From positions 41,668 through 105,667 of the forward strand of contig NZ_JASGHN010000001.1 of the NCBI RefSeq assembly GCF_047602345.1: a stretch of 64,000 bases of DNA. The letters run 5' to 3'. Source of the stretch: Arenimonas sp. GTDB taxonomy: Bacteria; Pseudomonadota; Gammaproteobacteria; Xanthomonadales; Xanthomonadaceae. Positions 18,054-52,646 of the stretch are shown in pieces (within the stretch, counting starts at the first letter, position 1; every line of letters starts with the position of its first letter). The notes beneath the pieces were generated by a model, which was not told where the DNA came from, did not search any database, and saw only the letters and a list, made by a program, of their open reading frames with translations. Made by a program: the position numbers and the translations under genes.

Positions 18054-18082
18054 TTGTCCGCCCCCGGCCGCTCAGGTAGAAT
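18054..18082 (+). promoter_or_regulatory. Sigma70 promoter for tRNA-Ser(GGA)/ffs
   Basis: TTGTCC-17 nt-TAGAAT. Confidence 0.7.
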
Positions 18083-18137: not shown

Positions 18138-18230
18138 GGAGAGGTGTCCGAGTGGTTGAAGGAGCACGCCTGGAAAGTGTGTAAGCGTCTAAACCGCGCT
18201 TCGGGGGTTCGAATCCCCCTCTCTCCGCCA
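18138..18230 (+). tRNA. tRNA-Ser(GGA)
   Basis: Cloverleaf with long variable arm, anticodon loop CT-GGA-AA, GGTTCGAATCC, encoded CCA. Confidence 0.97.
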
Positions 18231-18280
18231 GTTTTGAGTTGTCGAAGACTTTCCGCTCGCGATAGCTTTCGCCTGCAAGT

Positions 18281-18401
18281 GGAAAGAGGGGGTGAGAACC
18301 CCCGAGGGTTCGACGGATCGGCAAGATTGCCGATCCGGACGGCGAAGCCGCCCGCAGGGCGAGGCACAGGATGTGCCGAGTCAATCTCCCTCTCTCCGCC
18401 A
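18281..18401 (+). repeat. tRNA-Ser-linked structured element (copy 1), ending in a duplicate of the tRNA 3' end
   Basis: Ends in CCCTCTCTCCGCCA (14 nt identical to the tRNA 3' end, offset 171); homologous to the reverse complement of 51950-52069 and 52109-52228. Confidence 0.85.
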
Positions 18402-18419: not shown

Positions 18420-18446
18420 AGCGCGGCCACGCCGCGCTTTCGTTTC
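18420..18446 (+). terminator. Terminator-like hairpin between the tRNA-Ser element and ffs
   Basis: AGCGCGGC-CAC-GCCGCGCT followed by TTCGTTTC. Confidence 0.45.
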
Positions 18447-18449
18447 TAT

Positions 18450-18560
18450 GGTGGCCCCGTCGGCCCCTCGCGACGATAGGTCGAAAACCCCGCCAGGGCC
18501 GGAAGGCAGCAACGGTATTGACCGATTCGGGTGCCGAGACCAGCCGGCGGGGCTGCCACC
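18450..18560 (+). ncRNA. ffs: Signal recognition particle 4.5S RNA
   Basis: Domain IV core CAGGGCCGGAAGGCAGCA with GGAA tetraloop; GGTGGC...GCCACC terminal stem; dnaX-adjacent position. Confidence 0.92.
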
Positions 18561-18638
18561 CTCTTCGAATTCCTTTCGCGATCGTTGGCGAAACTTCGCC
18601 GGCTCCTGTCGCCCTGTCCGGCCTTCATCGCAGGCAGC

Positions 18639-18692
18639 CAGCAACGGTCGACCGATTCGGGAGCCGAGACCCGCCGGCGGGGCTGCCACCCT
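18639..18692 (+). repeat. Degenerate direct repeat of the SRP RNA 3' half
   Basis: CAGCAACGGT-C-GACCGATTCGGG-A-GCCGAGACC-C-GCCGGCGGGGCTGCCACCCT versus 18507-18562. Confidence 0.9.
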
Positions 18693-28365: not shown

Positions 28366-29165
28366 GCGCCGCGATCGATCGGCTCAGGCTTCTCAGGCAG
28401 GACGCGGGAAGCGCAACGCCAGTGATGGCGCCCAGCCCTGTTCCGGATGAGCTGCGCCGGCTGCTGGGCATCCGTGCACGAGCCAAGGCACCCGCTCGAG
28501 TCGCGCCCGATCGTTGGCTGACAGGCGATCAGATCTCGCCTGGCCTGCGTTTCCTGGAACAGTTCCATGAAGCGCCCGAACTCCCCGACGAGATCGACGC
28601 CGATTTCGCCCGAATGGGTCGATTCCGGACCAGCGACCTGCTGTTCTTCGATACAGAAACCACCGGCCTGGCCGGCGGCACGGGGACGCGTGCGTTCATG
28701 ATCGGTGCGCTGGACGTACAGGACGACCGGCTGAGGTTGCGGCAACTGTTGACCACGACCATGGCCGCCGAAACATCGATGCTGCAGACATTCGCCGACT
28801 GGATCGGCCCGCAGACTGCGCTCGTCAGCTACAACGGCAAGAGCTACGACAGACCGTTGCTGTCGACGCGCTATCGCCTCGCGCGGCTTCCCGATCCGCT
28901 ACGCGATCGCGCCCATATCGACCTGTTGCATCCGGTGCGCCGTCGCTGGCGCGGGGCCTGGGAGAACTGCCGTCTCGGCACGGTCGAGCGGCAACTGCTC
29001 GGCGTATTGCGCGAGGACGATCTGCCGGGCTCGGAAGCGCCGCGTGCGTGGACCAGCTATCTGAGAGGCGGTTCGGCCGCGAACCTGCGTCGTGTCGCCA
29101 CGCACAATGCGCAGGACCTCAGGAGTCTTGCCGGTATCTGCTTCGCCCTGGATCGGATGCGGTGA
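28362..29165 (+). CDS. mrfB: DEDDh / RNase H-like 3'-5' exonuclease (MrfB/YprB family)
   Basis: FFDTETTGLAGGTG, SYNGKSYD, HIDLLH, HNAQD; ATGA overlap with the helicase stop. Confidence 0.82.
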   Translation: MSAAIDRLRLLRQDAGSATPVMAPSPVPDELRRLLGIRARAKAPARVAPDRWLTGDQISPGLRFLEQFHEAPELPDEIDADFARMGRFRTSDLLFFDTETTGLAGGTGTRAFMIGALDVQDDRLRLRQLLTTTMAAETSMLQTFADWIGPQTALVSYNGKSYDRPLLSTRYRLARLPDPLRDRAHIDLLHPVRRRWRGAWENCRLGTVERQLLGVLREDDLPGSEAPRAWTSYLRGGSAANLRRVATHNAQDLRSLAGICFALDRMR

Positions 29166-29202
29166 AAAAGAAAAACGCCCCCGAGGGGCGTTTTCTTTTT
29201 TC
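29165..29202. terminator. Bidirectional terminator shared by mrfB and tRNA-Ser(CGA)
   Basis: AAAAAGAAAAACGCCC-CCGA-GGGGCGTTTTCTTTTTTC. Confidence 0.85.
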
Positions 29203-29293
<91 letters not shown>

Positions 29294-51914: not shown

Positions 51915-52288
51915 AAAAGAAAAACGCCCACAAGGGGCGTTTTCTTTTCTGGCGGAGTGAGAGGGATTCACTCGGGCCATCCCTGGCCCTCGCCCCTTAG
52001 GGGCGGCTCCGCCGTGCTGATCGGCATTCCTGCCGATCAGTCGAACCTTCGGGTTCTCATCCCCTCTCTGCAGAAAAGAAAAACGCCCACAAGGGGCGTT
52101 TTCTTTTCTGGCGGAGTGAGAGGGATTCACTCGGGCCATCCCTGGCCCTCGCCCCTTAGGGGCGGCTCCGCCGTGCTGATCGGCATTCCTGCCGATCAGT
52201 CGAACCTTCGGGTTCTCATCCCCTCTCTGCAGAAAAAGAAAAACGCCCACAAGGGGCGTTTTCTTTTCTGGCGGAGTGAGAGGGATTC
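51915..52288 (-). repeat. Tandem 159/160-bp repeat: [terminator + structured element + 20-nt tRNA-Ser 3' end] x2, ending in a third terminator
   Basis: TGGCGGAGTGAGAGGGATTC at 51950, 52109 and 52269; the two units are identical except for one A. Confidence 0.95.
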
Positions 52289-52361
52289 GAACCCTCGATA
52301 GAGCTTTTGACCCTATACTCCCTTAGCAGGGGAGCCCCTTCGGCCTCTCGGGCATCACTCC
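52269..52361 (-). tRNA. tRNA-Ser(GCT)
   Basis: 93 nt, long variable arm, CT-GCT-AA; csrA-serV-like synteny. Confidence 0.97.
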
Positions 52362-52427
52362 AGAATCGATCCATCGGTGCTTGCGCCAACGCGCGAAGCC
52401 AACCGGAAGGCGCGCTAGGATACTCGC

Positions 52428-52646
52428 TCAATCCTCTTTCGGCAAAGCGTCGTTGCCTTCGCTCCGCGCGGCCGCACCCGCCTCGTCCTTCTGCAGGCGT
52501 TGGAAAATCTCTTCTCTGTGCACGGCAACGTCTTTCGGCGCCGTGATGCCGATCCGCACCTGATTGCCCTTCACGCCCAACACCGTGACCGTGACGGAGT
52601 CACCGATCATGAGGGTCTCACCCACCCTCCGCGTAAGAATCAGCAT
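52428..52646 (-). CDS. csrA: Carbon storage regulator CsrA/RsmA
   Basis: [16 protein letters not shown]...[18 protein letters not shown]. Confidence 0.98.

Follow-up and report, generated by a model that had tools for sequence, protein, structure and literature searches.

A hairpin-rich element downstream of tRNA-Ser genes in Arenimonas sp. is, by sequence and structure homology, a divergent member of the RtT/TLR family

The TLR/RtT repeats were described in E. coli in 1978. RtT RNA (RF00391; gene rttR) corresponds to 178-bp repeats at the E. coli tyrT-tyrV locus, and both covariation support and a tandem G.A motif have been reported for it (bioRxiv 10.1101/2020.02.04.933952). The TLRs of E. 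coli comprise 22 copies at ten loci, each with a 3' end identical to that of the upstream stable RNA gene; they have no known function or phenotype, and a 1991 claim that tied rtT to the stringent response was withdrawn (PMC8144298). For the rrn-linked TLRs RrA, RrB and RrF, terminator read-through transcription, cleavage by RNase E and binding to Hfq and CsrA in vitro have been described (PMC8144298).

The DNA analysed here, a 64-kb stretch from Arenimonas sp. (hereafter the window), had been reported in a first-pass annotation to hold an ORF-less multi-hairpin element in three copies. The hairpin-rich 121-base element behind tRNA-Ser(GGA) is confirmed as real. The sequence of all three copies agrees with the description, the folds exceed those of shuffled sequences by far in stability (z −5.3 and −4.5, with 0 of 200 shuffles as good), and neither the GGA nor the GCT units contain an ORF beyond those expected by chance in GC-rich sequence. 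The GGA locus is organized as follows, in window coordinates:

18054–18082, + strand: sigma-70-like promoter match 5' of tRNA-Ser(GGA), a match to the consensus alone
18138–18230, + strand: tRNA-Ser(GGA), host gene of the GGA element copy (ARAGORN; Rfam tRNA model)
18231–18280, + strand: 50-nt spacer between tRNA-Ser(GGA) and the element; spacer and element make up the 171-nt unit that is missing at the empty sites of relatives
18281–18401, + strand: GGA element copy, 121 nt, ending ...CCCUCUCUCCGCCA, as tRNA-Ser(GGA) does
18281–18293, + strand: 5' arm, GGAAAGAGGGGG(U) (MFE fold; cognate-specific arm pairing in homologues)
18294–18313, + strand: GAGAACCCCC-GA-GGGUUCGA, which contains hairpin H1 at 18296–18311 (fold, RtT alignment, covariation)
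18314–18383, + strand: conserved core, 70 nt (covariation; homology to the RtT consensus)
18384–18401, + strand: sense copy of the tRNA-Ser(GGA) 3' end, AUCUCCCUCUCUCCGCCA (sequence comparison)
18420–18446, + strand: intrinsic-terminator-like hairpin (18420–18438) and U-run, closing the unit of tRNA-Ser(GGA) and element before the SRP RNA
18457–18553: SRP RNA, 3' of the GGA unit (Rfam, 62 bits)

The 5' arm of this copy is antisense to the T-stem 3' strand and the acceptor 3' strand of the tRNA and forms the outer helix, P1, with 18384–18397, and the 3' strand of H1 equals the 5' half of the T-arm (GGUUCGA, to A58). The core reads, in order, C, H2 (10 bp, 18314–18337), GA, H3 (CGGC-GAA-GCCG, 18340–18350), H4 (CCC-GCA-GGG, 18351–18359), CGA, H5 (GGCACA-GGA-UGUGCC, 18363–18377) and GAGUCA. 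Further along, the last ~55–60 nt of the SRP RNA recur ~75 nt downstream (about 18600–18692); this displaced 3' end is reminiscent of a TLR or an att scar, yet the repeat is much longer and no RtT-like core was seen by eye.

The other two window copies lie in tandem behind tRNA-Ser(GCT):

52269–52361, − strand: tRNA-Ser(GCT), host gene of the tandem copies (ARAGORN)
52239–52263, − strand: intrinsic terminator in the interval between tRNA-Ser(GCT) and copy a, recurring at 52079–52103 and about 51921–51944
52109–52228, − strand: element copy a, with arm (52228–52218), H1 region (52217–52200), core (52199–52127) and tRNA 3' copy (52126–52109)
51950–52069, − strand: element copy b, 159 nt downstream of copy a and of the same sequence
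29203–29293, − strand: tRNA-Ser(CGA), comparison gene followed by a terminator only, with no element behind it (ARAGORN)

With T for terminator, the order at the GCT locus is tRNA-T-element-T-element-T, with a period of 159 nt. The terminators behind tRNA-Ser(CGA) (29165–29202, − strand) and tRNA-Ser(GCT) (52233–52268, − strand) are nearly identical at loci 23 kb apart, and this type of terminator also belongs to the 159-nt repeat unit. Directly upstream of tRNA-Ser(GCT) and the repeats lies csrA (read from the sequence, about 52400–52600, − strand), with a likely alaS beyond it, and the order csrA-tRNA-Ser(GCT)-element is also found in relatives (loci L009 and L014). Overall, the neighbours of the element in the window are dnaX, moaC and, by sequence reading at 52.4–55.4 kb, csrA and alaS.

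In its own genome, BLAST matched the element only to itself, and detecting the other copies took a profile or a covariance model. The profile built from the three window copies recovers these in the 3.2-Mb genome at E 1e-30 to 4e-37 and adds a fourth, so that one copy lies behind tRNA-Ser(GGA), two in tandem behind tRNA-Ser(GCT) and one, on another contig, behind tRNA-Ser(TGA) (G000:C3:6865-7023, L002:866-1024). Three of the four tRNA-Ser genes of the genome thus carry the element, tRNA-Ser(CGA) being the one without it. The TGA copy is rearranged, with an insertion of ~50 nt (two small hairpins) in the H2 loop and a 5' arm and H1 that cannot be recognized. Upstream of the same tRNA-Ser(TGA), at G000:C3:6646-6733 (L002:647-734), a copy of the first 19 nt of the tRNA is followed by GGGCGAGGCAGGAGCCGAG; this segment looks like a decayed remnant of an anticodon-loop type of the element that is intact in three other genomes (G029, G010 and G021).

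No Rfam family matches the element at curated thresholds. The gathering cut-off of RF00391 is 45 bits, and the window copies were instead reported by E-value: the model aligns to 18272–18401 over positions 1–130 at 38.5 bits (E 2e-6 locally, 8e-6 in the whole genome), and the GCT copies match the whole 130-position model at 25.4 and 24.8 bits, likewise below the cut-off. A tRNA-Ser(GGA)-linked copy of the same subfamily from a relative passes it at 49.3 bits, and the four copies at E. coli K-12 tyrT-tyrV, which are alike in layout, score 133–137 bits. The GGA copy aligns to the RtT consensus at UGAGAAC, GGUUCGAC, GCCCGNAGGGCGAGGC, CGAGUNAAUC and the P1 pairs, and the shared motifs UGAGAAC, GCCCGNAGGGCGAGGC and CGAGU have no tRNA origin. 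Like RtT RNA, to which it is matched over its full length in sequence and structure, the window element lies behind a tRNA on the same strand, has an outer helix made of a 5' arm and a tRNA-derived 3' strand, ends in the NCCA of its cognate tRNA and is tandemly repeated. It also has the split T-loop junction UUCGA|C...GAGU|AAUCC that is common to all four E. coli tyrT copies, which bears out the initial description of a T-loop split by an insert. The differences are that the window element is linked to tRNA-Ser (in relatives also to tRNA-Gln) rather than tRNA-Tyr and scores below the curated cut-off, that E. coli P3 is replaced by H2, a 10-bp stem whose loop is GGAA/AGAU, and that its unit measures 159–171 nt instead of 178 and has no tpr-like ORF.

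Every hallmark of TLRs that could be tested here was found, namely, location in a stable-RNA operon on the same strand, a terminal copy of the upstream tRNA end and tandem arrays. Copies of the element lie about 50 nt downstream of their tRNA genes. The 3' identity, 18–19 bp in E. coli, extends over 19 nt with one mismatch at GGA, counting the A at 18383, and over 20 exact nt at GCT, where the GA of the core end is included; the claim that each copy carries the 3' end of its own neighbouring tRNA, with 14 exact nt at GGA and 20 at GCT, is correct. As in other E. coli TLRs, the 3' end is that of the upstream stable RNA gene, the setting is a tRNA/rRNA operon and there is no known function (PMC8144298). 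Thus, judged by sequence and structure homology, the element is a divergent Ser-linked member of the RtT/TLR family that the Rfam cut-off narrowly misses; the family is already described and this kind of element is not new. The first-pass annotation had cited E. coli tyrT/rtT merely as a precedent for a possibly undescribed family. The relatedness holds, but tyrT/rtT is the family itself, and the full-length match to RF00391 is essentially the match to a described Rfam family that the annotation had named as counting against its proposal.

The element can be divided into five segments. The 5' arm is antisense to the T-stem 3' strand and to part or all of the acceptor 3' strand of the host tRNA. 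It is followed by AU-GAGAACC, a near-antisense of the T-loop and T-stem 5' strand, and then, after a short loop, by GGUUCGA, the sense T-stem 5' strand and T-loop to A58. The 70–73-nt core consists of C, H2, H3, H4, CGA, H5 and GAGUNN, and the last segment, AUCC...NCCA, is a sense copy of tRNA positions 59–76. The resulting layout is a split T-arm, GGUUCGA | ~70-nt core | AUCC...GCCA, closed by the outer helix. Among 57 distinct homologues, 83% of cells form standard pairs and double-sided changes occur at 35 of 38 pairs; the covariation values are matched by 0 of 500 shuffles and by no slid register. The alignment was fitted to four of the hairpins and favours them. Nevertheless, three or four pair types occur per position in H2 and H5, which argues for real covariation there. 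Collectively, comparison of the homologues indicates that the fold is selected and covarying.

The compensatory changes that had been read from the three window copies in GAACCC/GGGTTC, GGATCGGCA/TGCCGATCC and GGCACA/TGTGCC are borne out in these homologues. Of the proposed GGCG/CGCC and CCC/GGG stems, the presence of hairpins stands, whereas the GGCG/CGCC register does not, for it overlaps CCC/GGG; the covarying register consists of two adjacent triloop hairpins, H3 (CGGC-GNA-GCCG) and then H4 (CCC(C)-GNA-(G)GGG). Compensatory variants include CGGC/GCCG, CAGC/GCUG, CGCC/GGCG, CGACC/GGUCG and UGCCC/GGGCA in H3, and CCCC/GGGG, CCGC/GCGG and GUCC/GGAC in H4. Two long-range pairings were considered and rejected. 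The MFE fold of the GCT copy pairs GGCGGAG with 3' CUCCGCC, but the segment belongs to the covarying hairpin H3, and homologues such as L009 cannot form the pairing. The UUCG/CGAA helix of the Rfam consensus is unsupported in the lineage of the host, where the H4 loop varies (GAA, GCA, UAA, GUA) and UUCGAC is constant.

The outer stem between 5' arm and tRNA 3' copy, also predicted at the outset, is good in the GGA copy (12 pairs, of which one is A.C and another G.U). It is weaker, with 7 pairs plus AU, in the GCT copies and missing in the TGA copy. Both arms vary with the host tRNA (Ser isoacceptors and Gln; Tyr in E. coli), and the outer helix prefers its own 3' arm, with a mean of −11.1 kcal/mol for cognate versus −8.4 for non-cognate combinations and −19 to −22 for well-formed copies. 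By contrast with the arms, the T-stem 5' strand beside the core does not consistently track the host tRNA in the homologue loci compared. As for the origin of the 5' arm, either from the tRNA's own 5' strands or as antisense of the 3' strand, the only three informative cases split two to one.

A covariance model, R1, was built from the GCT copy and searched in 61 related genomes. The family is present in 23 of them, covering 15 of the 21 genera of the order but only 8 of the 37 genomes of the same genus, and the matches often form tandem arrays, with one to five copies per site. In the fetched loci, the usual host is tRNA-Ser, with all four isoacceptors represented and the element ~50 nt downstream, and tRNA-Gln(CTG) is the host of three copies. 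In 18 of 23 contexts, the final 12 nt of the cognate tRNA recur without mismatch 143–215 nt downstream, also with Gln-type ends (...CCCCCAGCCA). The covariation and tRNA association that the first-pass annotation had made the touchstone of its proposal are thus both present among homologues. In the class as a whole, RF00391 matches 72 of 400 genomes, the best matches being located behind tRNA-Gln, tRNA-Glu, tRNA-Tyr and tRNA-Ser; 23 of the 72 exceed the cut-off, and most of these matches, being below it, are probably unannotated. A pattern scan of contigs gave, among the matches listed, true enterobacterial and gammaproteobacterial RtT copies mixed with likely chance matches from other phyla.

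Several loci in these genomes depart from the usual arrangement. In G029, two tandem 132-nt units lie directly upstream of an intact tRNA-Ser(TGA) (L065:235-505, G029:C1:2914134-2914404), each consisting of nt 1–36 of this tRNA, the core, nt 37–45 and 13 further nt. Elsewhere in the same genome, five 71-nt cores (…GAGYGA|CUGAUCGG…) occupy one split T-loop frame downstream of tRNA-Ser(GCT) (L064:770-1130, G029:C1:2486970-2487330). A minimal hairpin, AAGAGAAGG-CAGUAAU-CCUUCCCUCUCU, follows two GGA-linked copies in G029 (L036/A6); it contains the two arms and the right junction without H1 and core, and may have arisen by deletion or excision. Two genomes have closely similar cores (L018:1501-1630 and L020:1501-1604) with no tRNA within 1.5 kb, in GC-rich, possibly coding sequence.

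A comparison of filled and empty sites, proposed at the outset, could also be made. In three genomes of the genus (G035, G003 and G002), tRNA-Ser(GGA) is directly followed by AAAUCCAG..., a terminator and the SRP RNA, and these represent empty sites. In the window, the matching downstream sequence (AAAUCGCCAG..., terminator, SRP RNA) comes after the CCA of the element. Because the same sequence follows the tRNA end in one case and the element's CCA in the other, filled and empty sites differ precisely by the 171-nt unit at 18231–18401, which lies between two copies of the tRNA end. The arrays of two to five units in relatives are as expected from recombination or slippage between repeated tRNA ends.

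We consider it probable that the element is an RtT-family TLR, that is, a structured non-coding unit in tRNA-Ser transcription units that is transcribed together with the tRNA, excised by tRNA-processing enzymes, and multiplied or lost by way of the repeated tRNA end. The proposal builds on features established by sequence comparison, namely, RtT homology, a covarying fold, host-matched arms, a unit bounded by the repeated tRNA end, and variation in presence and copy number. At the GGA locus, where the element precedes the terminator and a promoter-like site lies upstream, the unit would be co-transcribed with the tRNA; at the GCT locus, co-transcription would require terminator read-through, as in the rrn TLRs of E. 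coli. With a strong intrinsic terminator before each GCT copy, the element could be poorly expressed at that locus. A stable RNA of ~120 nt may be freed by tRNA-processing enzymes thanks to the tRNA-like end (a 12-bp minihelix plus GCCA, along with the repeated RNase E context), and release could proceed by RNase P or RNase E and 3' trimming, by analogy with the proposal for RrB in E. coli. By the same analogy, we infer transcription, processing and a CCA-ended product at the window loci. Recombination between the repeated tRNA ends, unequal or slipped, would shift the copy number.

Besides the possibly low expression at the GCT locus, three points count against the TLR reading. The window copies score under the Rfam cut-off (38.5 and 25 versus 45 bits). 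The outer helix is predicted to be weak in the GCT copies and lost in the TGA copy. Finally, unequal crossing-over accounts for arrays, but not for the origin of a first copy whose arms fit a new tRNA.

The position of the element between two terminators at the GCT locus resembles that of RrA, RrB and RrF, which lie behind 5S rRNA between T1 and T2; unlike in these TLRs, which bind Hfq and CsrA via GGA motifs, there is no sign of such binding at the window element, the sequence comparison with TLRs covering RtT. Similarly to 3'ETS-leuZ and other sRNAs from tRNA precursors, the window element would be a non-coding RNA freed by processing from a tRNA 3' trailer. However, 3'ETS-leuZ, a sponge that captures sRNAs by base pairing, is short and unstructured and has no tRNA-end copy, clamp or conserved multi-hairpin core.

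One of the other explanations is that the released RNA acts in trans as a tRNA mimic, its outer helix and GCCA imitating an acceptor/T-arm minihelix for the CCA-adding enzyme, an aminoacyl-tRNA synthetase, EF-Tu, RelA or tRNA-modifying enzymes. Indeed, the outer helix of ~12 pairs, followed by discriminator and CCA, is a feature of acceptor/T-arm minihelices and viral tRNA-like structures; the GGA copy has 12 such pairs and then GCCA, arm complementarity is kept for each host tRNA, and GGUUCGA and AAUCC are conserved. Yet the T-loop of the element, unlike that of those structures, is interrupted by a 70-nt core and its bases are predicted to be paired in H1 rather than free, several copies (GCT, TGA) have a short outer helix or none, and the tRNA-linked TLRs of E. 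coli have no known phenotype, the stringent-response claim having been withdrawn (PMC8144298). On balance, a function as a mimic, which the first-pass annotation had offered as one of two options, is plausible in principle but improbable. Two further readings are far less probable. A decayed duplicate of a tRNA-Ser gene would explain why the element covariance model weakly matches tRNA-Ser(GCT) genes and why four hairpins with a closing stem superficially resemble a class II tRNA. However, only the T-loop half and 3' end resemble the tRNA, tetraloops and triloops take the place of D, anticodon and T loops in the hairpins, conservation and covariation of the interior extend across an order, with a match to RtT, and neither ARAGORN nor the Rfam tRNA model makes a call on the element, so that a pseudogene origin is highly implausible. 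T-loops and anticodon loops of tRNA genes are the classical crossover sites of integrases, and the element resembles such att sites in that these two loops are involved and the tRNA end is copied at a displaced position, which would fit attL/attR-type scars left by an integrative element that recombined at the tRNA-Ser T-loop via a tyrosine integrase. Nevertheless, the units of only 159–171 bp carry no cargo, no integrase is found nearby (the neighbours are dnaX, moaC, csrA and alaS), the interior is a conserved covarying structure common to E. coli RtT, and one design stands behind four different tRNA types. Moreover, the core lies inside the would-be crossover region rather than beside it, and tandem units of 130–170 bp are not a feature of tRNA-gene att sites. 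We regard an att origin as hardly credible, and the att-like site with a recombinase, the other option offered by the first-pass annotation, finds no support, as neither an integrase nor a specific transposase was found.

A different form of mobility deserves more weight, though it too is unlikely. The ~70-nt core itself could be the mobile unit, inserting after the fifth base of the 7-nt hairpin loops of tRNA genes (UUCGA|AU, CUUGA|AA), with the arms made from the target and multiplication head to tail, in which case the TLR would be a footprint and not an RNA selected by the host. Consistent with this possibility, the same core occupies the same loop position in two frames, the T-loop behind tRNAs and the anticodon loop of tRNA-Ser(TGA) 5' fragments; the anticodon-loop versions (...CUUGA|core|AAACUGCCG) are tandem and, in four genomes from two families, precede the intact gene, a mirror of the usual arrangement. 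Furthermore, a single T-loop frame in G029 contains five cores head to tail, a few of the cores lack a neighbouring tRNA, and occurrence in the genus is patchy with precise empty sites. The cores also cluster partly by lineage and not by tRNA type, the GCT- and TGA-linked cores of one family being 85% alike and the TGA copy of the Arenimonas sp. genome being nearest to GCT-type cores, and a mobilome study of E. coli found a raised signal of exonuclease-resistant DNA over tyrT-rttR. Against these observations, no recombinase, integrase or HUH transposase lies near any window copy; all eight carrier genomes contain a gene for a Y1 transposase (PF01797), the HUH enzyme to which the presence of IS200/IS605-derived miniature elements (PATE) or REP/RAYT would be tied, but so do 20 of the genus's 33 non-carriers, and the genome with 11 copies of the element has one PF01797 gene. 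There are no terminal inverted repeats and no clear target duplication, slippage can produce arrays, and the strong conservation of single-stranded motifs from E. coli to the lineage of the host fits a selected RNA at least as well. It is because no enzyme, no intermediate and, among the loci examined, no intact tRNA gene with an inserted core was seen that we rate the mobile core as unlikely.

With the element read as an RtT-family TLR, the family extends well beyond enterobacteria, and its hosts include tRNA-Ser and tRNA-Gln besides tRNA-Tyr. The outer arms are re-matched to each host tRNA and the core stays conserved. In annotation practice, most members outside Enterobacterales go undetected at the Rfam cut-off. 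A selected RNA could be tested against a selfish module with the loci compared here, which include filled as well as empty sites within a single genus, arrays made up of cores alone and versions in anticodon loops. If the core did prove to be mobile, this would explain the sense and antisense copies of host tRNA ends in TLRs and would give these unexplained repeats a mechanism.
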